Of a stretch of DNA of 64,000 nt, positions 10,431 to 58,973 are shown piece after piece; positions within the stretch are counted from its first letter, which is position 1, and every line of letters starts with the position of its first letter. Made by a program: the position numbers and the translations under genes. The notes below the pieces were generated by a model. The model was given only the letters and a program-made list of their open reading frames with translations. It searched no databases and was not told the DNA's origin. Origin of the DNA: Candidatus Tayloriibacteriota bacterium (lineage in GTDB: Bacteria; Patescibacteriota; Minisyncoccia; Phycocordibacterales; CAIRYW01); the NCBI GenBank assembly GCA_028286725.1, contig JAQBQZ010000009.1, positions 1,408 to 65,407 of the forward strand. Reading direction: 5' to 3'.

Positions 10431-10465
10431 ATGAACATTATAACTCAAAAATATTGACATGTAAC

Positions 10466-13500: not shown

Positions 13501-16500
13501 TGATTGATCTGTTGATCTTATATAAAGAGTGATATTGCCGGTCGTGTCTGGCGCTCCAATATCGGATCCCCCCAAACTACAGTCTGTTGCAATCCAGCTT
13601 GAATTGTCATAACTGTAAGCGCATTCAGTAGGCCCATAAATACCCCAGTCTACAATTGCACCTGCCCAAGTTGCGGACGTAAGGGCATAATCAGTTACAG
13701 GTTGAGTTATATTTACAAAATAGCAAGATCCGTCATCTATATTTGCAGCTCCGTTGTAGTTTAATGCACGCCCATCTGTACATCCAGAAACATCATAAGT
13801 ACAAGAACCATCATCTGTATTTGCAGAAGAATCATAGTTGTTTGCAGAAGAATCCATACATCCCAAAACAACAGCCACACATGATCCATCATCTACATTC
13901 GCAGCAGAGTTGTAATTAAATGCTGAAGGATCTGTACAGCCAAGTACATCATAAGTACAAGAACCATCATCAGAGTTTGCAGAAGAGTTGTAATTATTAG
14001 CAGTAGTATCTGTACAGCCAGATGTTCCCTGACAACTATAATCGCAGCCTGAATCCACATTTGCACTTGGGTCATAATTACAAGCATTAGAATCTGTACA
14101 TCCGACTACATCATATGAACACGATGCATCATCTACAGTAGCGCTCGGATCATAGTTAGTAGCGGCACTATCAGTACATCCGTAAACAGGTGAGTAAGAG
14201 AAATTAACCTGCGCAAAGTAATTATTTGAGGCTCTTATATAGAGAGTATTAGATCCTATTTGAGGCTCAACAAAATCAGATCCATTAGAACCACAATTCG
14301 ATGTATACCAACTTGTATTATCATAACTATATTCACATACACCAGGTCCACCAGATACATATACACCCCAATTAACTGTTGCGCCGCCTCCCCAAGTGCT
14401 CATTATAGTATCACCCTCTAATGGATTATTGATTTGAACACGGTAACAACTTCCATCATCATTATTTGCAGAAGAGTTGTAGTTTATTGCATTACCATCT
14501 GTACACCCTGATACAGTATATGTACAAGAACCGTCGTCAGAGTTTGCCGAAGAATTGTAGTTGTTTGCCATATTGTCTGTACATCCTGTAACGGTGTAAG
14601 TACAAGAACCGTCGTCGGTATTTGCTGAAGAATTATAGTTATTGGCAGACGGATCAGTACAACCAGAGACATTATAGGTACATGATCCGTTGTCATGCGT
14701 AGCATTTGAATCATAATTGCTTGCAGATGAATCCATACAGCCTTCATTATATGTACAACCACCACTGTCTACGTTTGCTGATATATTATAATTGTTGGCT
14801 TGGTTGTCAGTACATCCAGAAATATTAAAATCACAACTTCCATCATCGTAGTTTGCTGATGAGTTGTAATTATTTGCACCTTGAGTAGTGCATCCATAAA
14901 AGAGGCATGAACCATCATCAGAGTTTGCAGATGGATTATAATTATTCGCACTCGAATTCGTACATCCAGGAACAGTATACGCACAACTTCCGTCGTTATA
15001 ATTTGCTCCCGAATTGTAATTGTTTGCAGTGGTGTCAGTACATCCATAGAAGAGACAAGACCCGTCATCTGTATTTGCAGATGAATTGTAGTTATTAGCA
15101 CTTCCATTCATACATCCATTAACAGTATATGTACAAGAACCATCATCAGTATTCGCTGATGCGTTGTAGTTATTAGCACTTCCATTTGTACAACCAAATG
15201 ATTTTGCTACGCAAGAACCGTCATCATTAGTTGCAGATGAATTATAATTATACGCGTTAGAATCTGTACAACCATTTACGTTATGGCAACTGTAATCACA
15301 ACTACCAGAAGATCCGTAATTACATGCTGTACCGTCAGTACATGTAGTATTATTTTGGCAACTGTAGTCACAGCCTGAATTTATATTTGCACTCGAATTA
15401 TAATTACATGCACCAGAATCCATACAACCGTAAGTATCATAAGTACAAGAACCATCACTTATGGTCGCGGATGAATTATAGTTGTTTGCAGAATTATCTG
15501 TACACCCATATGTATCATAAGTACAAGAACCGTCGTCTTGAGTTGCTCCCGAGTTGTAGTTGTTTGCAGAACCTGTTGTACAGCCATATATAGTATTAGA
15601 AACATTTACACTTATAGCATCAGAAACTGATGAATTCCCTGCAACATCTCTTGCCACCACATCTATATAATAGACTCCATTTGAGACAGTAGTAGAATCC
15701 CAATTCAAATCGTAAGGTTCAGAAGTTATCTCTGAGCCTAAATCACTAAAATTACTGCCATCTGTACTCACTCGAAATTGTACACCTGCAATAATTCCAT
15801 TATCGGTCACATCTGCACTCAGATATACCGAAGATCCGTTCACACCCGAACCATTTGTTGGAGACGAAATAGTGGCACTTGGAGCAGACATATCTGTCGG
15901 TTGATAAAATGTTCCATCTGTACCATAGGATCCTGATGATCCCGTACCACCTGTCGATCCTGGATTACCAGGAGTTCCCGATGATCCATTCTGACCAGTT
16001 GCACCTTGAGCACCATCAATTCCACAGACAACATTTTCAGGATCACTATAATCACATCCATGTACACCCCCTCGTCCACCTTGTCCGCCTGGACCACCAT
16101 TAGCACTTCCTCCAGCGCCTCCTTGTCCACCTGCTCCTGGAGCACCTGCGTAACCTCCAGTTAAATTTTGACCGCCGATAGTTGAACCTTCATCAAGATT
16201 AATATTTCCTGAGTTTCCTCCAGCTCCGCCATTGCCTCCATTACCACCTGCTCCTCCATCACCAGCAGGGCTTCCACTAGTACCGTCTTGCCCAGGACTT
16301 CCATCACCACCATTACAATTTGTATTTGGATCACAATCAGTTCCAGGAGCTCCATCGCTACCCGCCACCCCATCTGCACTTGTCGCATCAGAACCATTTG
16401 CCCCCATTCCACCATTTCCTCCCGCACCCCCATATGTAGAAACGGTACCTGTAACTTTTGAATGATTTGCCAAAGTAACATTACCTCCATTTCCTCCGTA

Positions 16501-17001
16501 ATCTCCGGAAGCACCGTCGCCACTTGTTGCATTAGGTGCTGATGAACCAGTACCACCAGTAGCCACGATATTTCCATTAACTGTAGTATTCGAAATAGAG
16601 ACACTGCCAGCAGATCCCGCTCGAGTCGCTATGCCATCTGCACCACTCGCAATAATATCTCCGTTCAACGTAAGATTCGTTATTTGAACAGCGAGACCAT
16701 CGTCTCCATCACCCCTTAACACCCCTGAAGCATTTATATTTCCAGTTATTGTATGCCCCCCGCCATTTATAGTTATTCCAGAAGCAGTAATAATAAGACA
16801 ATCACCTCCGCCTCCAAAATCGCCAGTTATTTCATATGTTTCATTTGGCGTAGCAAGAGACTGACAGCCTCCAACAGTCGTATCTGCAAAAGTAGATTTC
16901 GGAAAAAGAAATGCCCCACCTAGAGAGAGAAAAGTGACAAGAAATATAAGCAAGGGCGAAGTAAAACTATATATTTTTTTGATCGTCCGTGACTTATACA
17001 T
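10519..17001 (-). CDS. giant surface protein carrying at least 45 tandem 28-aa Cys-pair repeats and a C-terminal PG_binding_1-like anchor
   Basis: 2160 aa with a signal/TM N-terminus (MYKSRTIKKIYSFTSPLLIF) and a Gly-rich region with DPENVVCG. Long arrays of G-C-T-D-x-x-A-x-N-Y-N-x-x-A-x-x-D-D-G-S-C-x-Y units are interrupted by three roughly 90-aa CEYSYDN modules. An FN3-like module and a C-terminal LQRFLNATGY...FGAATKAALAKFQ...GYFGL PG-binding-like domain follow. Confidence 0.85.
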   Translation of the reverse strand: MYKSRTIKKIYSFTSPLLIFLVTFLSLGGAFLFPKSTFADTTVGGCQSLATPNETYEITGDFGGGGDCLIITASGITINGGGHTITGNINASGVLRGDGDDGLAVQITNLTLNGDIIASGADGIATRAGSAGSVSISNTTVNGNIVATGGTGSSAPNATSGDGASGDYGGNGGNVTLANHSKVTGTVSTYGGAGGNGGMGANGSDATSADGVAGSDGAPGTDCDPNTNCNGGDGSPGQDGTSGSPAGDGGAGGNGGNGGAGGNSGNINLDEGSTIGGQNLTGGYAGAPGAGGQGGAGGSANGGPGGQGGRGGVHGCDYSDPENVVCGIDGAQGATGQNGSSGTPGNPGSTGGTGSSGSYGTDGTFYQPTDMSAPSATISSPTNGSGVNGSSVYLSADVTDNGIIAGVQFRVSTDGSNFSDLGSEITSEPYDLNWDSTTVSNGVYYIDVVARDVAGNSSVSDAISVNVSNTIYGCTTGSANNYNSGATQDDGSCTYDTYGCTDNSANNYNSSATISDGSCTYDTYGCMDSGACNYNSSANINSGCDYSCQNNTTCTDGTACNYGSSGSCDYSCHNVNGCTDSNAYNYNSSATNDDGSCVAKSFGCTNGSANNYNASANTDDGSCTYTVNGCMNGSANNYNSSANTDDGSCLFYGCTDTTANNYNSGANYNDGSCAYTVPGCTNSSANNYNPSANSDDGSCLFYGCTTQGANNYNSSANYDDGSCDFNISGCTDNQANNYNISANVDSGGCTYNEGCMDSSASNYDSNATHDNGSCTYNVSGCTDPSANNYNSSANTDDGSCTYTVTGCTDNMANNYNSSANSDDGSCTYTVSGCTDGNAINYNSSANNDDGSCYRVQINNPLEGDTIMSTWGGGATVNWGVYVSGGPGVCEYSYDNTSWYTSNCGSNGSDFVEPQIGSNTLYIRASNNYFAQVNFSYSPVYGCTDSAATNYDPSATVDDASCSYDVVGCTDSNACNYDPSANVDSGCDYSCQGTSGCTDTTANNYNSSANSDDGSCTYDVLGCTDPSAFNYNSAANVDDGSCVAVVLGCMDSSANNYDSSANTDDGSCTYDVSGCTDGRALNYNGAANIDDGSCYFVNITQPVTDYALTSATWAGAIVDWGIYGPTECAYSYDNSSWIATDCSLGGSDIGAPDTTGNITLYIRSTDQSFAGAFNKTSASVNFTYDISGCTDSSASNYDSTATVDDGSCTYDVLGCTDSAYLNYNSSATVDDGSCSNDVLGCTDPVSTSYDPAATIDDGSCLYNMGCTDSTAFNYDALANRDDGSCVAVAFGCIDGTANNYNSSANTDDGSCTYDVVGLYFNGAVDNDWNNLGNWWGDASFVIPATVLPNNSSTVYISAAVNSNSGATPTVNQATFSNGAVIRVSIIATNSVIFNDDSQNLGSVTASVVEFNNSAQNHGDINGNVNVYYPTPNPIGGTVSGNVDYLGYILGCTDSTANNYNNMANTNDASCTYDISGCTDSSYVEYNAAATIDNATCLTLKVFGCTDSSANNYDSSANTDDASCEFVVSGCTDSFANNYNPSATTDDGSCTYDVYGCTDPVAINYNSSANIDDGFCVYMDITAPTHNQNIVNWTGATVNWGNFSPDTCEYSYDNNTWHSANCAVNGSDIPQPDSNGAVTIYLRSSSPDFESGTPQTTQQTFNYIPPDILGCTDSGYTEYNSAATVDDGSCSTLVILGCMNEAYLEYSGAANTDDGSCVTPKVPGCTDPSARNYNSSANVDDSSCTYDVLGCTDAGYEEYDPSANVDDGSCVTLIGNGNGVSVPQISGLSATPASNAATISWTTNVDASSQVSFGPTYNYSRTTAETDVVTRVTSHSINISGLVACSIYHYKVASTDELSHTGESNDSTFTTTGCTGNAAVVASDSNSINVGSGGSFSVDSMNISVPNNFTSATTSATFQIKKLNTLSFVGSAGTPSGQNFVGTVYNLKALVNDTDVISTFDHPITVTLSYSPSDIININPSTLSIYRYDGSAWYPLSSCSVNTGARTVTCETSNFSDFAIFGTAYTPIISTGGGGGGVFNFLTMQANNSQSVAVATTAAATTTTPAKTLLNLKASRFTFTKVLQFGDTNTEVLALQRFLNATGYTIAKTGAGSKGKETNKFGAATKAALAKFQKSHRINPPAGYFGLVTRSYINAMLKASQK

Positions 17002-33606: not shown

Positions 33607-34995
33607 TTAAGCTATAATCCCCTTTCGAGCAAGATTATCTCTCTTGAACTTTGCGATCATTTCTCGCTGGGTCATACCGAGCTTGGCTGCTTTCTTCTTC
33701 AAGAATACCCACGCCATAAATGCTGACCAAAGTGTCATACCGAGTACGAAAAGGATCATTTTGAGGTTCTCTCCTACTCCTGTATATGGAATATCACTAA
33801 GATATACTCCAGAGGCAAGTGTTCCGTTGTTTGGTGTATTACCACCGTTACTTACGAGAGTAATATTGCCGTTGTTTCCACCTACATATACATTACATGT
33901 CTGTGTGACTGACTGACCACCTCCATCAGTTATTCGTACTGTCGCAGACTTTGTTCCACTCGTGCTAAACGATTGAGTTACAACTGATCCGTTACCATAT
34001 ACATCTCCTGACCACTGATAGTTATAGTTACTACCATTTCCGCCGTTTGCATTAGCTGTGAATGTAGCAACATTATTACCAGATACACTTGCAGAACAGT
34101 ATCCAGAAAGTGATTGGTTGTAGTTGTTGTTAACCTGAGTACTACAATTTCGTGTGATTGACTGACCGTTTGAAGTGATAGTTACAGTTGCAGATTTTGT
34201 TCCTCCGTTGTAGTAAGTATTTGAAACACTAGAACCATTACCATATGCATCTCCTGACCAACTATATGTATATCCTCCATTTCCACCTGTAGCATTAGCT
34301 GTCCAAGTAACAGTCTGGTTTGTCCCATATGATCCACTTGCAGTACATGAACCCTCCAAAGTATTTGTATTTTGCGCTACCTGGTTTGTAACTACGTTAC
34401 AGTTTCCCTGTCCTGCACAAGTGTTGTTCGTATTAGTGACCGTACTTGTATAGTTATAGTTAGTATTAGTTTTATTGCTTAAGAATGAGAGTGAAGAATT
34501 TCCTCCGTAACCACCACCGTTATTGTATCCACTATATCCACCTCCAATTCCTCCATATGAGTATGGCATTACGTAACCAGAAGAGTATCCGTATGATGAT
34601 GACTGAGGATATCCATATGAAGAGTATCCGTATGAAGGAGATGAGTAACCAGTCGAATAAGGTTGACTGTAAGAATCAGAATATCCATAGTTACTTGAAG
34701 GATAGTAGTCGTAACCAGTATCGTACCCATAATTACTTGAAGGGTAATAGTCGTAAGACGAATCAGCCGCATAGTTACTTGATGGATAGTAGTCGTATGA
34801 TGAACCACTTGAGTAATTACTTGAAGGGTAATAGTCGTAAGACGAATCAGCCGCATAGTTACTTGATGGATAGTAGTCGTATGAACTTCCTTCATCTGCC
34901 ATTACAGCAGTCGGAACTACCAAGATCGCCATAGAAGCAACAACAAAAAGTGCTGTTATTACCCTATATTTGATTGTGTTTATAATGTTTTGCAT
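33607..34995 (-). CDS. secreted low-complexity surface protein with PKD-like domains and a conserved C-terminal IPYTG-TM-basic tail module
   Basis: Signal peptide, then 5x SSYDYYPSSNY tandem repeats. There are two YxYxWSGDxYGNGS...GTKSATVxIT PKD-like modules. The C-terminus SGVYLSDIPYTGVGENLKMILFVLGMTLWSAFMAWVFLKKKAAK...AKFKRDNLARKGIIA is paralogous to that of 44439..45653. Confidence 0.7.
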   Translation of the reverse strand: MQNIINTIKYRVITALFVVASMAILVVPTAVMADEGSSYDYYPSSNYAADSSYDYYPSSNYSSGSSYDYYPSSNYAADSSYDYYPSSNYGYDTGYDYYPSSNYGYSDSYSQPYSTGYSSPSYGYSSYGYPQSSSYGYSSGYVMPYSYGGIGGGYSGYNNGGGYGGNSSLSFLSNKTNTNYNYTSTVTNTNNTCAGQGNCNVVTNQVAQNTNTLEGSCTASGSYGTNQTVTWTANATGGNGGYTYSWSGDAYGNGSSVSNTYYNGGTKSATVTITSNGQSITRNCSTQVNNNYNQSLSGYCSASVSGNNVATFTANANGGNGSNYNYQWSGDVYGNGSVVTQSFSTSGTKSATVRITDGGGQSVTQTCNVYVGGNNGNITLVSNGGNTPNNGTLASGVYLSDIPYTGVGENLKMILFVLGMTLWSAFMAWVFLKKKAAKLGMTQREMIAKFKRDNLARKGIIA

Positions 34996-43002: not shown

Positions 43003-44025
43003 TTAAATATATTTTTTAATTAATTTTCTTGTTATATAAACATAATACCAAAATGGCTTCAATACGAGATCATAGAGTGCCAGATGGTGAACTACTTCCC
43101 CTCCAAACTTCTGTTTAAAGGAACTCAAGCCCTGCCATTTTTTGTTTTCTTCTCCGACCGACACTGCGCCAAAATTATAATATTTTGCACCCATATCTTT
43201 TGCCTTGAGCATCGCATTAAAATGCGCAAGATATGGAGCACAAAGATCTTTATGCAAATCAGAAGATGCTCCAAATACATAGTGCGCTACATCACCTACA
43301 ACAAACACAACATGTGAGGCGAGACGTTCATTTTCATAAAAAGCTTCGATCAAAAATCCTTTGCCTGTCTTTTCAAGTTCTTCAAAATATTATTTGAAGT
43401 AATCATTATTATGTAGTGCGAATCCTTTTAGAACAGAGGTCTGCTTCATAAGTTCCAAAAAAGCTGGGAGTTTTTTTGCAAGATCCTTATCTATAAGAAC
43501 CGTTTTTATTCCTTTCTTTTCTGCAAGACGAACTGAGTAGCGAGTCTTTGAATGCATTGCACTCAGGATCTCTTCAGGGGTACCACTTATCGCTGTATAC
43601 CACTCGTCACGAGGCTGGAAATACGCACCAACAATTGAAGGGGGTAAGGACTCTGTAAAATATTTTTTGAGTGGAATAGAATTATTTGAATCAATAAAAG
43701 TAAAATCCAGTCTTACAAATGCCACATTATTTTTCTTCGCCCACATTGTGAGCCCACTTTTAATAGATAAAATAATTTCTTCTGATACATTAGAGAGAAT
43801 CGGGCCGTAGGGAGCATACCAGTATGTGAGACTTCTGAAGAGCGGATATTCAACAATAAGAACAGAACCAATAACACTTTTGTCATTTAAGATTTGAAAG
43901 TTCTTTATATTCCTACTCATTCTTTTCTGGATCAGGCCATAGGCAAAAGTCTGAGTTAAAGGAATATTTTGACCATTTACTTCCACAAAATCTTTTTCGT
44001 TTGTAATCTCTTTGAGGTGTATCAT
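43003..44025 (-). pseudogene. FemAB-family (FemX/MurM-like) peptidoglycan bridge aminoacyltransferase interrupted by an in-frame TAA
   Basis: ORFs 43390..44025 (N part, ...MHSKTRYSVRLAEKKGIKT) and 43003..43353 (C part, ...GLSSFKQKFGGEVV) are in the same frame. They are separated by a single TAA at 43390-43392, and translation continues sensibly across it (YFEELEKTGKGFLIEAFYENE...). Confidence 0.6.
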
Positions 44026-44438: not shown

Positions 44439-45653
44439 CTATCTAACTCCTTTTCTCCTCAAATTCTCCTTCTTAAACTCTTCAATTCTTTCTTTCATAG
44501 ACATCTTAGGATGTCCCGCAGGCTGTAGCATTCCTCTTTTAAGCATAAGAGCATATGCCATGAATGCACTCCAAATCATCATTCCAAGAATAAAGAAAAT
44601 CATCTTAAGATTCTCCTCTACTCCAGTGTAAGGAATTTGACTGAGATATACTCCCGATGCGCTTGTACCAATACTTGGAGTGTTGTAGTAAGTCGTATTA
44701 GTATTATTTCCATAATAGTAGTTACCATTACCTACAGTCACATAAAGATTGGCGCAGCTGCTGTAGTTGTAATTATTGCCAGATGAAACATTTGAAGAGC
44801 AGACAGTTATTGTTGCTGACCCAGGATTACGAGCGTACAAGTTAATCGTGTTACCATTTATGCTTGCATTCACAACATAAGAATCAGTACCGTTAGATGT
44901 ATAGTACACATTGTTTCCTCCGTAGATACTGACATTCGCACTCTGCCCCACAGTAAGTGAAATACTGCTTGGATTTATAGTGATCGGATTTGAGTTGTAA
45001 TTGTTGTTACCATTTCCATTTATTGTGACATAGAGAGTCGCACATCCATATCCAGATGAGTTTGCACAGACAGTTATCGTAGATGATCCTCCAGAACTAT
45101 TTGCAGAGAGATTGATTGTATTACCACTTACATATGCAGAGACAGCTCCTGAATTTGAGTTTGATGAAATATAGTATCCGTTACCGTTGCCTCCATTTAC
45201 GTTAACTGTTGCACTACCAAGCGAATTGATGTTGATGTTGTTTTGACTGAGATACACATTTCCACCATTGCTGTTTCCATTATTGCTGTAGTTTGGCCAA
45301 GTTTTTGCCTGAGATTGCTGACCATTTACTATCACATAAACTGATGATCCAGAAGGGATACTATAGTTGTAACTATTGAGAGTAGTATTTAGATTTCCTG
45401 AACTATCAGTTGTTCCAATGTTTGTCGATGAAGGATTTGATGCATTGTTCGGGTAGTAATAAAGCAAAACCTGCGCATTCGGGTCCGCATTAAGACTTAT
45501 TGATACGATGCTATTGTTACCGTTTGCAAGTGCAAAAGTAGGCGTAACAGCCGCTTTTACGCTCAAAAATGGCAAAAATAGAGCTATAATGGCAAAAACA
45601 CTGATAATTAAGGGGTATTTGTATGTATGTTTCATGATAAAACTAATTATCAA
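44439..45653 (-). CDS. secreted Asn/Gly/Ser-rich surface protein with conserved C-terminal IPYTG-TM-basic tail module
   Basis: Signal/TM N-terminus and a long low-complexity N/G/S/Y-rich region. The C-terminus SGVYLSQIPYTGVEENLKMIFFILGMMIWSAFMAYALMLKRG...EEFKKENLRRKGVR is paralogous to that of 33607..34995. A terminator hairpin lies at 44392-44425. Confidence 0.7.
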   Translation of the reverse strand: MIISFIMKHTYKYPLIISVFAIIALFLPFLSVKAAVTPTFALANGNNSIVSISLNADPNAQVLLYYYPNNASNPSSTNIGTTDSSGNLNTTLNSYNYSIPSGSSVYVIVNGQQSQAKTWPNYSNNGNSNGGNVYLSQNNININSLGSATVNVNGGNGNGYYISSNSNSGAVSAYVSGNTINLSANSSGGSSTITVCANSSGYGCATLYVTINGNGNNNYNSNPITINPSSISLTVGQSANVSIYGGNNVYYTSNGTDSYVVNASINGNTINLYARNPGSATITVCSSNVSSGNNYNYSSCANLYVTVGNGNYYYGNNTNTTYYNTPSIGTSASGVYLSQIPYTGVEENLKMIFFILGMMIWSAFMAYALMLKRGMLQPAGHPKMSMKERIEEFKKENLRRKGVR

Positions 45654-45764: not shown

Positions 45765-45846
45765 GCTGGAGTGGCGGAATTGGTATACGCGCTAGTCTTA
45801 GGAACTAGTCCCGTAAGGGTTAGGAGTTCGAGTCTCCTCTCCAGCA
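45765..45846 (+). tRNA. tRNA-Leu (anticodon TAG), long variable arm
   Basis: Acceptor GCTGGAG/CTCCAGC, anticodon stem-loop CTAGT-CTTAGGA-ACTAG, variable arm CCCGTAAGGG and T-loop GGAGTTCGAGTCTCC. Confidence 0.8.
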
Positions 45847-45987
45847 CAAAAAATGACCCCGAAAGGGGTCTATTTTTATGTCTGCTGGAGAGGAGACTCG
45901 AAGGGCGCAGCACACCGAAGTTTACGAGGTCTGAATTCAGCAGAATTCAGAAGCGAGGAGGGGTGAGCTCGGGATTGGGACCCGAGT

Positions 45988-46057
45988 GCAAGACCTTTTG
46001 AGATACAATCGAGCTTGCGAGATTTTATCCAAAAGGTGTACTGCTCCTGTATGGAGG
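45988..46057. repeat. copy R2 of the dispersed hairpin repeat family (includes a duplicate of the clpB 3' end)
   Basis: GGTGAGCTCGGGATTGGGACCCGAGTGCAAGACCTTTTGAGAT...ATCCAAAAGGTGTACTGCTCCTGTATGGAGG. The first part is the reverse complement of the last clpB codons at 28456-28495. Confidence 0.75.
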
Positions 46058-46169
46058 CGATTTGCGACGGCGAGTAAAATATTCGTGACCGAGTCTCCTC
46101 TCCAGTCTACGGACCTACACCCATCCCCCCCCCAAAAAAAAATAACACCTCTCGGTGTTATTTTTTTCT

Positions 46170-46487
46170 TTATCTTGTAGGTTTCAGAACTTTCTTCATA
46201 TCTTCCTTAGTTTGTGTATCCTGACCGAGTCCGAAAGTATTGATAGAAATCTTGACTATCGTAAATGCCATAAACATAAGCGCCATTCCAATAATTCCCC
46301 AAAGTATTCCGTTAGCCCCTTTTGCTCTAACCTCTGGATTATCAGCCCCAGTTATATAAGCTCGCACTCCCCACAAAAATGCAACGAGTGCAAACGTAAA
46401 CATAAGAACAATAAGCGGGTTCACAATGACCCCGCTTATGTTCTCAATTAATTTATCTGCGGCGGCTGATGCTGCAATATTGTTCAT
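46170..46487 (-). CDS. two-TM small membrane protein, member 1 of a 7-gene paralog array (VirB2/TrbC-type T4SS pilin-like)
   Basis: 105 aa with two hydrophobic helices separated by a short charged loop (ITGADNPEVRAKGANGILWGIIGMALMFMAF). A terminator hairpin follows at 46139-46165. Confidence 0.55.
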   Translation of the reverse strand: MNNIAASAAADKLIENISGVIVNPLIVLMFTFALVAFLWGVRAYITGADNPEVRAKGANGILWGIIGMALMFMAFTIVKISINTFGLGQDTQTKEDMKKVLKPTR

Positions 46488-46489
46488 AG

Positions 46490-46819
46490 TTATCTAGTGA
46501 CCGCACCTGAAGCTGGACCTATTGCCTTAGGAATATAGTCTGGAGCAATTGTACTTGTTCCACCGCTCTGGAAGAATGTCTTTGAGAGAATGTTTACAAA
46601 TCCCCAAACTGAAACCATCACGAAAAGCGCAATGATACCGAAAATGATCATACCTCGCGCAGCCGCTCGCTTCTCTTCGTCTCCTCCTGCAGTCACGAAC
46701 TGTACGATACCAATGAGAAACAAAATGAGTCCGATTGAAATGATCAAAGGGATCAAACCGTTCATGAAGTTAGTAATAGATGTGAGACTAGAACCGATAC
46801 TTGAAAAATCCAGATTCAT
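46490..46819 (-). CDS. two-TM pilin-like protein, array member 2
   Basis: 109 aa. Core motif FVTAGGDEEKRAAARGMIIFGIIALFVMVSVWGFVNILSKTFF is shared with members 3-5. Confidence 0.6.
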   Translation of the reverse strand: MNLDFSSIGSSLTSITNFMNGLIPLIISIGLILFLIGIVQFVTAGGDEEKRAAARGMIIFGIIALFVMVSVWGFVNILSKTFFQSGGTSTIAPDYIPKAIGPASGAVTR

Positions 46820-46925
46820 AAATTAATTTATTAATTATTAATATTAAACGTAGAACTAATTATACCCTCGAAGCGTTACGGATTGCAATAGCAAGGTGGA
46901 AAACCTCATTAAAATTTCAAATCAA

Positions 46926-47495
46926 TTATCGCGAAATCTCATTACCCGAATTCGCAGAAAACTGGATTGATTGCTGCTGAGCTGGGGCACTAATGCTACC
47001 AGTACTTATTGATTGTGTTGGAGCTGCACTAATAGGAGTATTTACACCTCCAGCATCTTGAGCGCCAGAACAAGTTGTTGAAAAAACTTTATCATCACTA
47101 CTATTGAATTGAGGTATCACAAGCTGCAACCCAAAACTATTTGTAAATAATCCCAATATTCCCCAGATCGAGACCATAAAGAAAAATCCGAGTATCCCAT
47201 AGATCATCATCTTGCGCCCTTCACTCATCTTTTCACTATCATCTCCATGACTTACATATTTGATGAGTCCTTGAATAAAAGCACCGAGCGCAATAACAAC
47301 AAGATAAGGTATGAAATCGAGAGCAAGCTTTACAACAATACAGACAAGCTGGCTAAAATTCTGGGGCGCTGACGGTATCGTGCTCGAAAACATTGAATTA
47401 TCATCAGCATAAACAAAAACTGCATTTATAAGAACAAGAACCGCTACAAGTAGAAGATAATATGGTTTTTTCATCCCGTTAGAAAAGATTAGCAA
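46926..47495 (-). CDS. two-TM pilin-like protein, array member 3
   Basis: 189 aa with signal/TM and core YVSHGDDSEKMSEGRKMMIYGILGFFFMVSIWGILGLFTNSFG. Confidence 0.6.
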   Translation of the reverse strand: MLIFSNGMKKPYYLLLVAVLVLINAVFVYADDNSMFSSTIPSAPQNFSQLVCIVVKLALDFIPYLVVIALGAFIQGLIKYVSHGDDSEKMSEGRKMMIYGILGFFFMVSIWGILGLFTNSFGLQLVIPQFNSSDDKVFSTTCSGAQDAGGVNTPISAAPTQSISTGSISAPAQQQSIQFSANSGNEISR

Positions 47496-47583
47496 TTGCC
47501 TCTAATAAATTTTTATACTTTACATTCATGTGTTTTTGCAGATTTAGATTTTGTAAATAGTCTGCTTTTCTAACGGGACAGGC

Positions 47584-47937
47584 TTATTGTTGTAGTTTTG
47601 GTAAATAATTAGGTATTCCAAAATTCTGTCCAAAGAATGACTGAGTAAGAATGTTTACAAATCCCCAGATTGAGACCATCACAAAAAGAATAATAATTCC
47701 GTAGACCATGATCTTTCTTCCTGCCGACCTCTTCTCCGCATCATCTCCTGCACCGAGAAATCGAAGCACACCCGTCATAAATGTAATGACGGCAATGAGG
47801 ATGAGGGTTGGAATAAGCCCCATAAGATTCCCTACAGAAAAGTTTGTGAATATCTGATTAGCAGTATCAGGTGTTGTATTATCTGCCAACACAAGTGCCG
47901 GGGCGAAAGTGATGATAAATAAAAGAGCTTTTTTCAT
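47584..47937 (-). CDS. two-TM pilin-like protein, array member 4
   Basis: 117 aa with a signal peptide and core FLGAGDDAEKRSAGRKIMVYGIIILFVMVSIWGFVNILTQSFFG. Confidence 0.6.
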   Translation of the reverse strand: MKKALLFIITFAPALVLADNTTPDTANQIFTNFSVGNLMGLIPTLILIAVITFMTGVLRFLGAGDDAEKRSAGRKIMVYGIIILFVMVSIWGFVNILTQSFFGQNFGIPNYLPKLQQ

Positions 47938-47938
47938 A

Positions 47939-48505
47939 TTATTGTTTGAAGACAGTTGCTGATTTTTTTGGAAGGCTTTGAATCTCAGAATCAGTTCCGA
48001 AGAAAGATTTAGAAAGAATGTTTACAAATCCCCAGATTGAGACCATCACGAAAAGAGAAATGATACCGAAGAGCATCATATTTCGCCCTCCCTGTCTCGC
48101 CTCTTCATTATCTCCAGAGCTTACAAACTTGATCACTCCCGCCAAGAATAGTATGAGACCGAGACCGATCAAAAATGGTACTACGGCACTGTCGAGAAGG
48201 CAAAGCGCGTATGTGAACAATGATCCGATGTCGGTTGGAATATGACAGCTTCCAGATGCCGCAGCTCTTGCAGTAGCGTCAGTGACAGTAACCTGATTAG
48301 CTGAAGTCTGGCTAATTCCTGGTTGTACTTGAATACTAGTATTTATTGCAGAATTAACTTGTGAAGGACCTGAACCTCCTAGATTAGAACCTGGTATTGG
48401 GTTATTAGAGAAGCTTCCATCAAATGGACTTGCATAAGCGACTGTTAAAGATAGACCGAGTACAAAAACAGATAATGCTATTAAATATATTTTTTTCATA
48501 ATCAT
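47939..48505 (-). CDS. two-TM pilin-like protein, array member 5
   Basis: 188 aa with a signal peptide and core FVSSGDNEEARQGGRNMMLFGIISLFVMVSIWGFVNILSKSFFG. Confidence 0.6.
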   Translation of the reverse strand: MIMKKIYLIALSVFVLGLSLTVAYASPFDGSFSNNPIPGSNLGGSGPSQVNSAINTSIQVQPGISQTSANQVTVTDATARAAASGSCHIPTDIGSLFTYALCLLDSAVVPFLIGLGLILFLAGVIKFVSSGDNEEARQGGRNMMLFGIISLFVMVSIWGFVNILSKSFFGTDSEIQSLPKKSATVFKQ

Positions 48506-48530
48506 TTATTAATATTAAATATTTATACAA

Positions 48531-48908
48531 TTAATTAACCCCCGTACTCAAATCCTTGACCGTACTTGTCACTGCGAGCATTATCGTTCGCGCACCAAGA
48601 AGTATTGCAGTGCCAACAAGCGCCCAAGTAATAGTCTTATATGCCTTGCTGATCGCCTCTGGGTCACCTTGCGCAGTAACATACATAAATCCGCCGTACA
48701 TAATAGCAAGTACAGAAATAATTGTTCCAAGTTCAATACATACACCTACAATAGAATTAAAAAAATCGGTAAGACTCTTGTTTTGTCCAAGCGGATTAGG
48801 AATGTGACCAGCATCGCTTGCTCCATATACATATGATGTTGCTGATACGAATACAATAAACAAAAATACGCTAAGGTTAATAATTATTTTTTTAAGATTA
48901 ATTTTCAT
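48531..48908 (-). CDS. two-TM pilin-like protein, array member 6 (divergent)
   Basis: 125 aa, signal plus two hydrophobic segments (YVTAQGDPEAISKAYKTITWALVGTAILLGARTIMLAV). Confidence 0.5.
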   Translation of the reverse strand: MKINLKKIIINLSVFLFIVFVSATSYVYGASDAGHIPNPLGQNKSLTDFFNSIVGVCIELGTIISVLAIMYGGFMYVTAQGDPEAISKAYKTITWALVGTAILLGARTIMLAVTSTVKDLSTGVN

Positions 48909-48935
48909 AGTTTAATTATACGATAATTACACTGA

Positions 48936-49439
48936 TTATGCATTAGGTAAACTGCTGCCATCACTAGGAAGAACAGGTGGCGTTCTATCACTTGTATTAT
49001 TTTCCAAAATAGTAAACTCAGGCGAAATCTCAAGCACATTAAGTACAGTTGCAACAATAAGCCATGCAAGCATTATAATGATCACCCCCATTATAGTAGT
49101 ACTAAAAATTTTGTGAGCTTGCTCAACCTTACCCATTTCTCCAAATGCAGTGAGGTACAAAAATCCCGCGTACACAAACATCATTACCGCAATGGTTGCT
49201 GAGATAAAGATAATATATTTTAAAATTCTATTTAAAAGTACAATAAGATCACCCCATCCACATTCCCGGTTGATTGTACCTGAGCCTGTAGTCTGCCCAC
49301 AATCAGTCGATACCAATTGAAAATTAGGATCTGTTGCTGGGTCCCCTGTTGCAGCATTTGCTAACAAAGGAACAGAAAAAGAAAGAAACATTATCCCCAA
49401 AGAAAGAAAACCTATTTTTAATGCATTTTTAATTTTCAT
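48936..49439 (-). CDS. two-TM pilin-like protein, array member 7 (divergent, Cys-containing loop)
   Basis: 167 aa with a signal peptide and two hydrophobic segments (FISATIAVMMFVYAGFLYLTAFGEMGKVEQAHKIFSTTIMGVIIIMLAWLIVATV). Confidence 0.5.
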   Translation of the reverse strand: MKIKNALKIGFLSLGIMFLSFSVPLLANAATGDPATDPNFQLVSTDCGQTTGSGTINRECGWGDLIVLLNRILKYIIFISATIAVMMFVYAGFLYLTAFGEMGKVEQAHKIFSTTIMGVIIIMLAWLIVATVLNVLEISPEFTILENNTSDRTPPVLPSDGSSLPNA

Positions 49440-50788
49440 TATTTTAAGAGTTCATCTACTTGCTGGCTAATAAGCTTCGCTGAATCTGCAGGTTTTGATT
49501 TGCCTGTGACAATATCATCAACACCTTGAGCAAATGCTATGCTGGTTTGAATCGGATCTGGGTCAAGCCATGTTTTTGTCCAAAGCGCACTCTCCCAAAA
49601 TACATCTCCAAAAGAGGTGCCGGGTGAAGCACTCAAAAGATCTCTTCGTGCTGGCGGAAGTCCTGTGGCACTTGAAATCAAACTCGCGATCGGTGCGCTC
49701 GTGAGTACTGAAATATTATTGAAAGCGGCCTGCTGATTCTTTGATGTTGCAAGAATAGAGAAGCTGTACATTGTTCCCGAAGTAACTTTGACTGCTGAAT
49801 CTTTTGGTTGAGGCAATGGTGCAATATCAAAATTGAGGTTTGGATTTTTGGCTCGAATATCTCCCGCATCGCTTGCATGTCCAAAATAAAACGCCAAGTC
49901 GCCATTTATAAATGATTTTTCTGAATCAGGAAGGGACCGGTTCCAAGAATAAACAGACTTCAAAGGATCAGAGAATTGTGTAAAGAACGTAAGTGAAGCA
50001 CTAAATGGTGACAAACTGTCTATGGCAGAATCAGCGTTAAGCAAATTAACAGCTCTATCATTTGAATCTCGACCCACAAATACTCCCCCCGCCTGCATTG
50101 TGAGAGCAAGAAGAATATCTTTTGAATACGCAACATTACTATAATCTCCCATCGCAACAGTGCTTTTAAGAATGCTTCTGTCGTCTCTTCTCTCAGTCAA
50201 TAAATTGGTCAATGACAATACTTCTTCCCAAGTTTGAGGAGGTCTCGCAACATTTTTAGAAGTAAGAATGTTTCTGTTCCAATACATCACTAGTGGATCA
50301 ACAAGAAGCGGTACCCCGTAAGTACCCTTTGAAGTCATGAGAGGCTCTGCCCCTTCGACAAAAGTATCTTGAAATGTTCGCGCTGATAGAGCGTCAGTAC
50401 TGATAACGGTAAATTTTCTTTGGTTTTTGAGAAGGAGTGTGTTTGGCAAAAGTACTGCGTCTGGACCGTAGCCATCAGCAAGGGATTCAATAAGAGTCTG
50501 TTCAAAATTATTTGCAGGAATTTCTTTATATGCAATATTTATACTTGCCATCTTTTGACCGCTTACTACATCAAGCACATTAGCAATAGCACCCTCAGGT
50601 ACTGTGCCCCAAATCACTACTTGAGTAGCATCTGCATTAGTGTTTGAGCTAGTGCTGAATTTTGCAAAGACAATAACACCCGTAACAAGAAAAAGAATAA
50701 AAATTCCAAGAATAATTATTTGAGTAGCGTTCGTTTTCACATTTATAATTATATAGAGAGAAAGATACAAAGACAAGGGAAAATTCAA
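49439..50788 (-). CDS. membrane-anchored extracellular solute-binding protein (SBP family 1-like), orphan
   Basis: 449 aa with an N-terminal TM anchor and a periplasmic-binding-protein-like two-lobe sequence (QVVIWGTVPEG...). No adjacent permease or ATPase genes. It overlaps the start of array member 7 by 1 nt. Confidence 0.5.
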   Translation of the reverse strand: MNFPLSLYLSLYIIINVKTNATQIIILGIFILFLVTGVIVFAKFSTSSNTNADATQVVIWGTVPEGAIANVLDVVSGQKMASINIAYKEIPANNFEQTLIESLADGYGPDAVLLPNTLLLKNQRKFTVISTDALSARTFQDTFVEGAEPLMTSKGTYGVPLLVDPLVMYWNRNILTSKNVARPPQTWEEVLSLTNLLTERRDDRSILKSTVAMGDYSNVAYSKDILLALTMQAGGVFVGRDSNDRAVNLLNADSAIDSLSPFSASLTFFTQFSDPLKSVYSWNRSLPDSEKSFINGDLAFYFGHASDAGDIRAKNPNLNFDIAPLPQPKDSAVKVTSGTMYSFSILATSKNQQAAFNNISVLTSAPIASLISSATGLPPARRDLLSASPGTSFGDVFWESALWTKTWLDPDPIQTSIAFAQGVDDIVTGKSKPADSAKLISQQVDELLK

Positions 50789-50831: not shown

Positions 50832-51356
50832 TTATTTACGAAACACTAATCCATAATGATGCTCCCCCGCATCAATCTCATGATCAAGTACAAGCCCTGC
50901 ATCAGTAAATATTTTCAAAGCGTCTTCTTTTTTAACAAGATGATCCTTGTGTGGCCCCATTCCAGCAAATGAATCCGCCCACTCAATGACGAGCACTCGT
51001 CCTTTTACACGAAGGATTCGCAAAGCTTCTTTTGCAACAGCGTGTTTGTCATCATTTTGAAAAAGAGTGTTCGCAATCAGTACCACATCAACAGAATCTT
51101 TGGTCAAAGTTGAACCTTTTTCTTTCTCAATATCACTCGTTATTATTTCAATATTTTGAATATTCTCCGTTTCTGCTTCTTTTGCGATTTTTTGAAGCAT
51201 ATCACTTTGTACATCAATACAATACACTCGTCCTGTCTCACCCACTTTTCGCGCCAAAAGAAATGCATAATATCCATTACCTGATCCGAAGTCTGCTATC
51301 TGCATACCAACTGATATTCCAAACTGTATTAAATTTTTTTCTGGGTTTGAGAACAT
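50832..51356 (-). CDS. class I SAM-dependent methyltransferase
   Basis: Motif I IADFGSGNGYYAF and the Rossmann-fold methyltransferase layout. 174 aa. Confidence 0.75.
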   Translation of the reverse strand: MFSNPEKNLIQFGISVGMQIADFGSGNGYYAFLLARKVGETGRVYCIDVQSDMLQKIAKEAETENIQNIEIITSDIEKEKGSTLTKDSVDVVLIANTLFQNDDKHAVAKEALRILRVKGRVLVIEWADSFAGMGPHKDHLVKKEDALKIFTDAGLVLDHEIDAGEHHYGLVFRK

Positions 51357-51404: not shown

Positions 51405-51450
51405 GAAAGAACCGCATAACAAACTTTGTTTGTTATGCGGTTCTTTATTC
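51405..51450. terminator. bidirectional terminator downstream of gyrA
   Basis: AAAGAACCGCATAACAAACtttgTTTGTTATGCGGTTCTTT, a perfect 19-bp stem. Confidence 0.75.
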
Positions 51451-51476: not shown

Positions 51477-53957
51477 CTAGAGTGCAATCACTGATGCAAG
51501 TGAATCCCCTTCTCGAAGCTTCATGATTCGTACTCCTTGAGTGTCTCGTCCGAGTGTCGGGATCTCTTTGAGTTCACAACGGATTACCTGGCTTTTCTTT
51601 GAGATTGCCACAAGTTCTTCTGTCTCTGATGTTACCACTCGTGCTGAAATAAGATTACCCGTCTTTGTAGTAACTTTGATTGCTTTTACTCCTGATCCTC
51701 CTCGTCCTTGAGTTTTGAATTCTTTGATCTGTGTTTTCTTTCCATATCCGTTTGAAGAAATAACAAGAATCTCTGCATCTTTAACACCTTTCTTGATCGT
51801 ATCTGCGCCAACAACTACTTCACCTTTATCAATCTTCATTGCTCGCACTCCTCCTGCAGATCGTCCCATTTCTCGAACTTCACTTTCTTCAAATCGGATT
51901 GACTGACCGTCAGATGAAACACAGACGACTTCGTCTCCTTTTTCTACAAAGAGTGCGGATGTGAGCTCGTCACCCTTGTCTAAGGTGATTGCAATGATTC
52001 CACTTCGTCTTACATCTTTGAAATTCTCAGCAGAAACTTTCTTTCCTGTTCCCTGTTTTGTAATAAGGAAGAGAGACAGCCCATCACCTTTTCTTACGTC
52101 TTTTGGCATTGGAAGAATAGATGTCACCTTCTCGTCATTTTGTAGCGAGAGGAAGTTCATGATTGATTTACCTTTTGTTGCACGCTTTCCTTCTGGAATA
52201 TCATACATCTTGATCTGGTATGCCTTACCCTTGTCAGTAAAGAACAAAAGGTCGCTGTGTGTATTTGTTGTGATGAGATGAGAAATGAAGTCCTCTTCTT
52301 TTGTATCAAGATCTACGACTCCAACTCCCCCTCGTTTTTGTTTTCGGTATTCTTCAGGATCTGTTCGTTTGATATATCCTCCTCCCGTGTACACAAGAAC
52401 GCTCTCTTCATCTGGGATTAGATCTTCAACTGAAAATGTCTTTGCATTGTGAGCGACCACTTTTGTTTTTCGCGGATCTGCAAACTTATCTTTAATATTA
52501 CCAAGCTCATCTTTGATGATTTTTGGAATTCGTTTTGGGTTTTCGAGAATGTCTTTCAAATCTTTGATTAAGTCACGAATAGCATCAAGCTCTTCTTGGA
52601 TCTTCAATCTCTCAAGACTTGCGAGTTTCTGAAGTCGAAGTTCAAGGATCGCCACAGCCTGTCGTTCAGAGAACTTGAACTGATCCATAAGACCCTTTCT
52701 CGCATCATCAACAGTTTTTGACGCACGGATAAGTTTAATGATGGCATCAATTGCATCGAGCGCTTTTTTGAGACCTTCAAGAATGTGTTCACGATCAAGA
52801 GCCTTGTTCAAATCGAATTGTGTTCGACGTGTGATAACAATCTTTCGATGTTTTACGAATTCTTCAAGAATTGTTTTAAGTGACAAAGTTTGAGGTACTC
52901 CATCAAGAAGTGCCACCATGTTCATGTGGAATGTTTCTTCGAGTCGTGTGTGTTTGTAGAGGAAGTTTAAGACTTGTTCTGGATAGCTTCCTTTTTTAAG
53001 TTCGATAACGATTCGAACATCCTGAGTAGATTCGTCTCTAAGATCTTTGATGCCTTCAAGTTTTTTCTCACGAACCAAATCAGCAATAGCCATGATGAAT
53101 TCAGATTTGTTCACTCGATATGGAATACTTGTGATGATGATTATCGGATATCCCGCTTTGTCTTCTATGATCTCAGCTTCTCCACGACACAGGATTCCAC
53201 CTCGTCCTTGAGTATATGCGTGAAGCATTTCTTTCTTTCCAAAAATTATTCCACTAGTTGGAAAGTCAGGACCTTTTACGAATTGCAAAAGATCTTCAGT
53301 CGTCGCGTCTTTGTTGTCAATCAAATAATTTATTGCATCAACAATTTCACCGAGATTGTGCGGAGGAATGTTTGTTGCCATACCAACCGCAATACCGAGT
53401 GTTCCATTGAGGATTAGGTTTGGCACCGCAGCAGGTAAAACCACAGGCTCTCGACGAGTGTTTTCGTAGTTTGGTCGGAAATCCACTGAATCCTTTTCAA
53501 TATCACGAAGCATTTCAACCGTGATCTTTGACATCTTTGCCTCTGTGTATCTGTCCGCAGCTGGCGGATCTCCATCAACAGATCCCCAGTTTCCTTGTCC
53601 GATCGCGAGAGGATATCTCATTGTAAAATCCTGCACAAGAGTTACAAGTGCGCCATAAGCAGATGCAGTACCGTGTGGGTGATAATTACCCGTCACGTCT
53701 CCAATGATCTTTGCACTCTTTCGAGTTTTGCCTCCAGGATTAAGACCAAGCTCATGCATTGTATAAAGAATTCGTCTCTGTACCGGCTTCATACCATCAC
53801 GAACATCAGGGAGCGCACGATCTGTAATCACAGACATCGCGTAGTCCAAGTAACTTTCTCGCATTTCAGTAACGAGGGATCGTGGAACAATAGAGAGCGC
53901 TATCGCTTCTGCTTTCTCAGCGTCCGTTCGTTCCTGTTTTGGTTTTTCTTTGGCCAT
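51477..53957 (-). CDS. gyrA: DNA gyrase subunit A
   Basis: [12 protein letters not shown], the active-site Tyr region, the QRDR-like region and C-terminal beta-pinwheel repeats. 826 aa. Confidence 0.93.
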
Positions 53958-58316: not shown

Positions 58317-58973
58317 ATGTATATTAAAATAATATTTTGTATTTACAAAATTAGTATTAGGATGTTAATTTTGCCTTGCGTCAATAAGCACTTATATAAT
58401 ATCATTGTGTTACCAATGGAACAACAAAAGAAAAAAGGTATCGTGAGAGATTTTTTTGAAGCGTTCATTATCGCACTTTTGATAGCGTTACCTATCAAAT
58501 ATTTTGTTGCATCCCCCTTTATAGTTCGACAAACTTCGATGTTCCCAACATTTAAAGATGGCAACTACTTAATCGTTGACAAACTCTCATACAAATTTGA
58601 AGCACCGAAAAGAGGTGAAGTGATTGTTTTCAAGCCGCCTTTTGATAACACAACATATTTCATTAAGAGAATTGTCGGGCTTCCAGGAGAAACAGTGATC
58701 GTCGATAACGAAGGCGTCACAATCAAAAATACTGAGCATCCAGAGGGATTCAAACTCAATGAGCCATACGTATCTTCTTCAAGAGACAATGCAGTCACGA
58801 CAGTTCTCGACAACGATCATTATTTTGTTATGGGTGACAACCGCTCTGTCAGTTCTGATTCTCGAAACTGGGGACCTCTCCCAAAAGAAAACATCAGCGG
58901 ACGAGCACTCCTTCGACTCTTCCCTTTGAGCAGTCTCGATTATATGCCAGGCAAATCAACAGATAACGAATAG
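58317..58973 (+). CDS. lepB: signal peptidase I
   Basis: S26 motifs: box B with the SMFPTF Ser, box D GDNRSVSSDSR and box E. The likely start is MEQQKKK at 58413. Confidence 0.85.
   Translation: MYIKIIFCIYKISIRMLILPCVNKHLYNIIVLPMEQQKKKGIVRDFFEAFIIALLIALPIKYFVASPFIVRQTSMFPTFKDGNYLIVDKLSYKFEAPKRGEVIVFKPPFDNTTYFIKRIVGLPGETVIVDNEGVTIKNTEHPEGFKLNEPYVSSSRDNAVTTVLDNDHYFVMGDNRSVSSDSRNWGPLPKENISGRALLRLFPLSSLDYMPGKSTDNE

Follow-up and report, generated by a model that had tools for sequence, protein, structure and literature searches.

An ordered array of candidate VirB2/TrbC-like pilins led by a MalE-like binding protein in Paceibacteria

Why does a bacterium encode seven small membrane proteins in a row behind a solute-binding-like protein, and do these small proteins belong to a type IV secretion system (T4SS)? 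These questions are raised by region 46170-50788 of the 64-kb stretch of Candidatus Tayloriibacteriota DNA analyzed here (hereafter, the window). The region consists of eight co-directional open reading frames (ORFs) on the minus strand, with the gene of a binding protein (leader) first, followed by the genes P1-P7. An earlier reading made from the DNA letters alone (the sequence-only reading) had described seven consecutive minus-strand genes of 105-189 amino acids (aa) behind a transmembrane (TM)-anchored binding-like protein, and all of these ORFs were found as described. Here we show that the leader gene and the array are closely packed into a single unit, which is conserved throughout Paceibacteria, the largest class of Patescibacteria. 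Profile comparisons support the assignment of P1-P7 as homologues of VirB2/TrbC-like T4SS pilins.

The resemblance of the small proteins to VirB2/TrbC-like pilins had been proposed before any database search, and profile searches bore it out. The Pfam cut-off of either PF18895 (T4SS_pilin) or PF04956 (TrbC/VirB2) was cleared by six of the seven members. Against PF18895 (cut-off 26.6 bits), P1, P4, P5, P6, and P7 scored 37.3, 31.8, 29.6, 37.4, and 30.8 bits, respectively. P2 reached 32.4 bits with PF04956 (cut-off 27.9 bits) and 25.4 bits with PF18895. The PF18895 score of P3 (24.5 bits) was ~2 bits under the cut-off, and the same protein scored 73.4 bits against a hidden Markov model (HMM) derived from the core shared by the small proteins and iterated on related loci. 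Within the window, this core-derived pilin HMM matched P1-P7 and nothing else. In 85 related loci, it gave 414 further matches, all of them on the strand of the leader gene and none on the opposite strand. Therefore, the seven-gene array is not a chance arrangement. In other species, the orthologues of P1 and P2 fell into the same families, with PF18895 matched by 68/71 and TrbC by 45/71, and any other Pfam family by no more than 2. The NCBIfam family NF045849 (Mbov_0395 pilin-like conjugal transfer protein family) also gave matches or near-matches for all seven proteins, all below its 40-bit cut-off; P2 matched this family with E=1.2e-8.

The alignment and hydropathy scan showed that each of the seven proteins has two TM helices with a short charged loop between them. 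The hairpin part of the architecture given in the sequence-only reading (signal or TM helix, charged loop, second TM helix) thus holds for the whole array, and the signal peptide part holds for P1-P5 but not for P6 and P7. P1-P5 have a signal-peptide-like helix in front of the two TM helices, and their N termini end in A-x-A-like sites. P6 and P7 consist of the two TM helices and have no such sites. Because the loop is short, charged, and of the positive-inside type, both the N and the C termini should be located outside. In P1, the signal peptide is followed by an N-terminal extension with a Cys pair and then by the two-TM hairpin. The signal peptidase I (S26) listed in the general annotation of the window is a likely candidate for the enzyme that would remove the pilin leaders.

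The AlphaFold model of P4 comprised a signal helix (residues 2-16), a helix of residues 26-62, a four-residue loop (63-66), and a second helix of residues 67-102, with pLDDT of 84-91 in the hairpin. This is the helical hairpin anticipated for these proteins, a fold that is not specific. Since the hairpin fold is too generic, structure searches with the pilins were uninformative. Sequence and profile searches with the pilins reached no solved pilin structures and returned only spurious membrane-protein matches.

Clustering of 421 pilins from the window and the related loci resolved four subfamilies, A, B, C, and D, which follow one another in the fixed order A-B-C(2-5 copies)-D. The window array (Table 1) has four type-C members. 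In the 59 loci that extend at least 3.5 kb downstream, the arrangement was ABCCCCD in 21, ABCCD in 18, and ABCCCD in 8. Copy number varied in the C block only, with A, B, and D present as single copies at fixed positions. The positions were also retained when the members of the window array were compared with 24 other seven-gene arrays. P1 had its best match at position 1 in 20/24 of these arrays, P2 at position 2 in 24/24, P6 at position 6 in 16/24, and P7 at position 7 in 19/24. The best matches of P3-P5 swapped among positions 3-5. This order and orthology hold across species whose leader proteins are only 36-55% identical. The types differ in their N termini as well: a signal-peptide-like start was present in 0/61 type-D orthologues, and at least two Cys residues occurred in the N-terminal extension of 57/71 type-A orthologues. 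Positional orthology and clustering both keep the A-B-Cn-D order. This makes the array an old assemblage of unlike members, with expansion and contraction limited to the C block. The paralog burst under diversification that had been read from the window alone is replaced by four old subfamilies in a conserved order, A-B-C4-D in the window, with variation confined to the C block.

The subfamilies also account for the shared core, which had been described as nearly invariant in five members. The core LFVMVSIWGFVNIL was near-exact in P3, P4, and P6 and loose in P5, and the claim was narrowed to these type-C members, as P1, P2, and P7 belong to the other subfamilies. Within the array, identity to P1 was 12-24% in the alignment. 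In pairwise BLASTP, identities of up to about 64% were reached. Two candidate assignments were rejected. Type IV (class III signal peptide) pilins were dismissed as PF07963 was matched by 0/7 proteins and the sequences contained no G/F-T-L-I-E-type motif. The C-terminal I-P-N-Y-L-P-K of P4 was considered as a processing signal; its P-x-[Y/F/Q]-[L/I/M]-P shape was present in only 10/203 type-C members, which makes it lineage-specific.

Relatives of the leader were collected in a scan of one genome per species, where at least 574 were found and 80 loci were kept. The record titles name Taylor-, Zambryski-, Wolfe-, Nomura-, and Kaiserbacteria as well as Paceibacterota. Many relatives are titled 'uncultured Candidatus Saccharibacteria', which is suspected to be a generic label. 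A pilin gene directly followed the leader gene in 77/77 related loci whose sequence continues for at least 400 bp downstream. In the three loci without a pilin, the sequence stops less than 250 bp past the leader gene. The gap between the leader and the pilin gene had a median of 3 nt, and the two genes overlapped in 31 loci. In most related loci, a gyrA homologue was located within ~0.5-1 kb upstream of the leader gene, often with the same methyltransferase gene in between.

The binding protein and the pilin are fused in some of the relatives. In loci L072 and L082, a single ORF encodes the binding protein, a linker, a Cys pair, and a type-A hairpin. Assemblies from NCBI, JGI, and Logan contain five clusters of fusion proteins (P0140, P0141, P0142, P0189, and P0215), which fall into two divergent lineages with only 47% identity to each other. 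The pilin domain is C-terminal in every cluster. Because the fusions join them, the binding domain and the pilin N terminus are expected on the same, outer side of the membrane. Fusions of this kind can be read as Rosetta-stone evidence for a physical partnership of the leader with the type-A pilin. The leader had been regarded as an orphan solute-binding-like protein. With the array behind it in every locus that extends far enough and with its fusion to type A in some lineages, gene order and sequence point to an obligate partner of the array and not an incidental neighbor.

Other grafted forms were observed among the relatives. Some type-A members carry a subtilase-like or a Cys-rich N-terminal domain, and one ORF joins three type-C hairpins (L027:4722-6347, L079:1445-2194, L037:4092-5210).

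The leader protein cleared the Pfam cut-offs of PF13416 (SBP_bac_8) and PF01547 (SBP_bac_1). In its AlphaFold model (pLDDT 87.9), a flexible linker lies between the N-terminal TM helix and a full two-lobe fold, and the hydropathy scan likewise detected one N-terminal TM helix. The top Foldseek matches were a cyclic maltosyl-maltose binder, a cyclo/maltodextrin binder, and MalE, with TM-scores of 0.7-0.8. The best sequence-profile match in the PDB was 4r9f, a manno-oligosaccharide binder (E=7e-17). The oligosaccharide-type fold is well conserved. The TM anchor has no lipobox, and the anchor sequence itself is conserved among relatives. Neither the 64-kb window nor the Pfam-annotated neighborhoods of five related loci yielded an ABC permease or ATPase. 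The leader is predicted to be a membrane-anchored MalE-like (family 1) oligosaccharide-type solute-binding-like protein.

Table 1. Positions of the leader gene, the pilin array, and neighboring features in the window
Feature	Position	Strand	Remarks
Leader gene, MalE-like binding protein	49439-50788	minus	449-aa ORF; likely true start 50740, giving 433 aa
P1, type A	48936-49439	minus	167 aa; ATG overlaps the leader stop by one base
P2, type B	48531-48908	minus	125 aa; closest member to TrbC/VirB2
P3, type C	47939-48505	minus	188 aa; ~75-aa N-terminal extension beyond the signal peptide
P4, type C	47584-47937	minus	117 aa; member with AlphaFold model
P5, type C	46926-47495	minus	189 aa; ~65-aa low-complexity C-terminal tail rich in Ser, Gln, and Ala
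P6, type C	46490-46819	minus	109 aa; without signal peptide
P7, type D	46170-46487	minus	105 aa; last gene, without signal peptide
Terminator-like hairpin	46136-46167	minus	14 pairs then T run, directly after the P7 stop (terminator scan, sequence inspection)
SAM-dependent methyltransferase	50832-51356	minus	Methyltransf_31/25 domains; between gyrA and leader, upstream in most related loci
gyrA	51477-53957	minus	826-aa ORF; chromosomal landmark just upstream, outside the system
tRNA-Leu	45765-45847	plus	beyond the array end
IPYTG-tailed protein	44439-45653	minus	beyond tRNA-Leu
Signal peptidase I (S26)	58317-58973	plus	general window annotation

The layout of the window region is compact. The leader stop codon and the P1 ATG have one base in common, and translation of the two genes is probably coupled. 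The remaining intergenic gaps are 1-106 nt long. The hairpin after P7 likely marks the end of the operon; upstream, a 19-pair hairpin (51406-51446) follows gyrA. The annotated leader protein of a Candidatus Taylorbacteria metagenome-assembled genome, which is 100% identical, begins 16 codons after the start of the 449-aa ORF.

On balance, we consider it probable that the unlike, ordered pilins of the operon serve a T4SS whose genes lie elsewhere in the genome, and that the operon also supplies a dedicated glycan-binding partner. VirB4/VirB6-like components of this T4SS would extract the pilins from the membrane and build from them either a short pilus or a conduit that spans the envelope. Type C, present in several copies, could provide the bulk subunit, and its variable N- and C-terminal extensions would decorate the outer surface. 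Types A, B, and D, with one copy each, may act in the manner of minor pilins, at the tip, during initiation, or at the base. On the outer face, the binding protein would join type A and may there recognize host-surface glycans or capture host-derived oligosaccharide. A further step, by which the MalE-like protein would be the built-in receptor of a patescibacterial T4SS pilus, docked on or fused to type A in a four-class VirB2 filament for binding-protein-dependent host recognition or uptake, is speculative, and we would put it forward with considerable doubt. We know of no description of a VirB2 pilus with several subunit classes or of a solute-binding protein that is coupled to a T4SS.

Several points weigh against a T4SS encoded elsewhere as the destination of the pilins. 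VirB4, VirD4, and VirB6 were not recognized in Pfam scans of the 64-kb window; the sequence-only reading had already stated that VirB4 and VirD4 are lacking there, and phmmer with Firmicutes VirB4 likewise gave no match. The rest of the window is chromosomal housekeeping DNA (gyrA, topA, parB, clpB, serS, infB, a Mur ligase gene, a FemAB-like gene, ftsA, ftsZ, and lepB). Nor was VirB4 found in the 85 related loci, which extend up to 10 kb to each side, either in the neighbor tables or by phmmer with Firmicutes VirB4, a search made with no positive control. VirB6 and VirD4 were likewise not found within 10 kb of about 80 related arrays. The array is thus tied to a T4SS only indirectly. The T4SS pili that we know of are polymers of a single subunit type, and we are not aware of any pilus seen in these organisms. 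In extracts of Table S1 of PMC12102498, 9/23 listed Taylorbacteria draft assemblies are VirB4-negative, and extracts of Table S3 of the same paper show a separate single pilin gene beside virB4 in some Paceibacteria.

Other observations connect arrays and pilins of this kind with VirB4. The same Table S1 extracts list VirB4 as present in 14/23 Taylorbacteria drafts and mark the genomes behind loci L004 and L013 as VirB4-positive, and arrays adjoin virB4 in the Microgenomatia entries of the Table S3 extracts. A tblastn search of plasmids with P2 gave one weak match (E=0.08), on the Pontibacillus plasmid NZ_CP062975.1 (L086). The matched plasmid protein is annotated as a pilin-like conjugal transfer protein and scored 58.8 bits against the Paceibacteria pilin HMM, with P1 of the window scoring about equal. 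In the cluster at L086 11779-18093, its gene (signal peptide, Cys pair, hairpin) is located 4 kb upstream of a VirB4-like ATPase gene of the CD1110 family. This cluster also contains a 779-aa hypothetical protein downstream of the pilin-like gene, and the plasmid pilin closely resembles types A and B of Paceibacteria.

The separate pilin beside virB4 in some Paceibacteria means that the gyrA-linked array could serve something else, for example, a T4SS-independent surface assembly in which the hairpin proteins scaffold the sugar-binding protein for nutrient capture, with no role in secretion. Such a scaffold would agree with an array that always occurs with the binding protein and never near virB4, with fusions that physically tie the binding protein to a hairpin protein, and with the full, well-conserved oligosaccharide-type fold of the leader. 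A loose parallel is the archaeal 'bindosome', where pilin-like proteins organize sugar-binding proteins. These are, however, type IV pilin-like proteins and thus a different family. Moreover, the hairpin proteins are clear homologues of pilins from T4SS clusters in Saccharibacteria and Firmicutes, and the unit contains neither an assembly ATPase nor a permease. We therefore regard the scaffold as unlikely. An idea offered in PMC12102498, and in outline in the sequence-only reading, is that the genes are a diversification cassette. The paralogues would then be interchangeable variants of one pilin, amplified to vary antigens or host range, a role that has been suggested for VirB2 paralogues in Bartonella and Anaplasma. 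Low pairwise identity within the array, a type-C copy number of 2-5 with weaker positional orthology within the C block, and variable N- and C-terminal extensions are all in line with such a cassette. Interchangeable variants are nevertheless difficult to reconcile with single-copy A, B, and D genes at fixed positions that remain orthologous at 36-55% leader identity, which fits distinct conserved roles. The same applies to type D, which always lacks a signal peptide, and to type A, which typically has a Cys pair. A cassette function for the array as a whole is accordingly quite improbable.

The identity of the proteins themselves might also be questioned, as the hairpin fold is generic. The small proteins could then be unrelated membrane proteins (holins, bacteriocin immunity proteins, or parts of a split transporter), and the leader an ordinary ABC-importer component with its partners elsewhere. 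Assorted DUFs and membrane families gave weak sub-threshold Pfam matches to the operon proteins, and the leader does clear the SBP_bac_1 and SBP_bac_8 cut-offs. However, no holin or other competing family, which would have pointed away from pilins, was matched. No PHROG functional family, holins included, was matched by the pilins, and the sole Pfam holin match was non-significant (E=0.4) and fell on the TM helix of the leader. Only PF18895 and PF04956 recurred across orthologues. Strict linkage to pilin genes and fusion with a pilin would be unexpected for an ordinary importer component. Beside the leader, the Pfam-annotated loci list no ABC permease or ATPase. The chance that the proteins are unrelated to pilins is very small.

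An ordered pilin set that works with a T4SS would bear on the function of the T4SS in Patescibacteria, an essential system without a relaxase in which the pilin arrays are the most unusual part. The Paceibacteria array is a conserved, ordered set of four types that is permanently coupled to, and sometimes fused with, a binding protein, and this offers a starting point for asking how hosts are recognized or nutrients captured. With such an array, it is also harder to read the pilin arrays of Patescibacteria solely as antigenic-variation cassettes.

Beyond the array, the window contains the tRNA-Leu gene and the IPYTG-tailed protein that the sequence-only reading had placed after it. Both are present, but the IPYTG-tailed protein was rejected as part of the conserved unit, as it is a neighbor of the array only in the closest relative. 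The protein encoded at 33607-34995 (minus) ends in the same way as this one, with S-x-I-P-Y-T-G, a TM helix, and a basic tail, which resembles a sortase-type sorting signal. Its gene is located within a GC-richer 30-34 kb block (GC 0.46-0.49), beside ORFs without a Pfam match. Between the P7 terminator and tRNA-Leu lies a 265-nt non-coding, GC-richer stretch (45871-46135) that folds more stably than shuffled controls (z=-2.55). An Rfam search of the window and of this spacer returned tRNAs and sub-threshold noise only. The neighboring ORFs 6399-10460 and 10519-17001 (minus) encode giant proteins (1353 and 2160 aa) with bacterial Ig-like domains (Big_13, Big_7) and a peptidoglycan-binding domain at the C terminus, which are probably adhesins of the cell surface. 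Finally, a FemAB-family gene appears to be split into the consecutive ORFs 43003-43353 and 43390-44025 (minus). Its homologue in locus L003 is a single 343-aa gene, and the split could be a frameshift or a pseudogene.

How does the unit compare with known systems? Arrays of 2-11 VirB2-like genes, sharing 25% identity on average, have been reported from 383 Patescibacteria assemblies (Quinonero-Coronel et al. 2025, PMC12102498), and such arrays are thus already published. The seven-gene array falls within this description, being a tandem of 2-11 pilin genes of low mutual identity in a Patescibacteria genome. It shares with the published arrays the tandem PF18895/PF04956 genes, the low mutual identity, the chromosomal location in a monoderm ultra-small bacterium, and the lack of a relaxase nearby. 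According to a review, the patescibacterial systems are unique among monoderm T4SSs in their potential to build conjugative pili (PMC12857230). In Southlakia epibionticum, a six-gene PF18895 array (SEML1_0014-0019) is essential and located beside VirB6-like genes, in a cluster that has no binding protein (Wang et al. 2023, PMC10633639). In Southlakia and Microgenomatia, the arrays are within or beside a virB4/virB6 cluster, whereas the window array is at least 10 kb from any VirB4 and next to gyrA. The window array is also led by a MalE-like protein, and neither the A-B-Cn-D order nor the leader fusions are described in PMC12102498 or PMC10633639. Neither a solute-binding protein nor gyrA is mentioned in PMC12102498, and full-text literature searches combining these topics returned nothing. 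The leader-first array, the array order, and the leader::pilin fusions were not found in the literature searched, where the binding-protein-led, gyrA-linked, virB4-detached variant with A-B-Cn-D order appears to be undescribed.

VirB2-like proteins are defined by a pair of TM helices, a short charged loop in the cytoplasm, and termini that both lie outside, and Gram-positive conjugation depends on one of them, PrgF, as an essential component (bioRxiv 10.64898/2025.12.18.695078). The window members resemble the VirB2/TrbC pilins (PF04956) and PrgF of pCF10 in being small two-TM hairpins with a charged loop, outside termini, and mostly a signal-peptide-like leader. The VirB2/TrbC and PrgF systems have one pilin type inside the T4SS operon, in contrast to the seven genes of four types found here away from the machine. 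The window members also match, below threshold, the Mbov_0395 family (NF045849) of integrative and conjugative elements in Mollicutes and Firmicutes, to which the Pontibacillus plasmid member in its VirB4 cluster belongs. Unlike the seven-gene array, this family is represented by a single gene inside the T4SS cluster of a mobile element. The leader, in turn, has the two-lobe fold of the family 1 solute-binding proteins of ABC importers and clears their Pfam cut-offs. It differs from them in that it has no adjacent permease or ATPase and is anchored by a TM helix without a lipobox, and in that it is coupled to, and sometimes fused with, a pilin.

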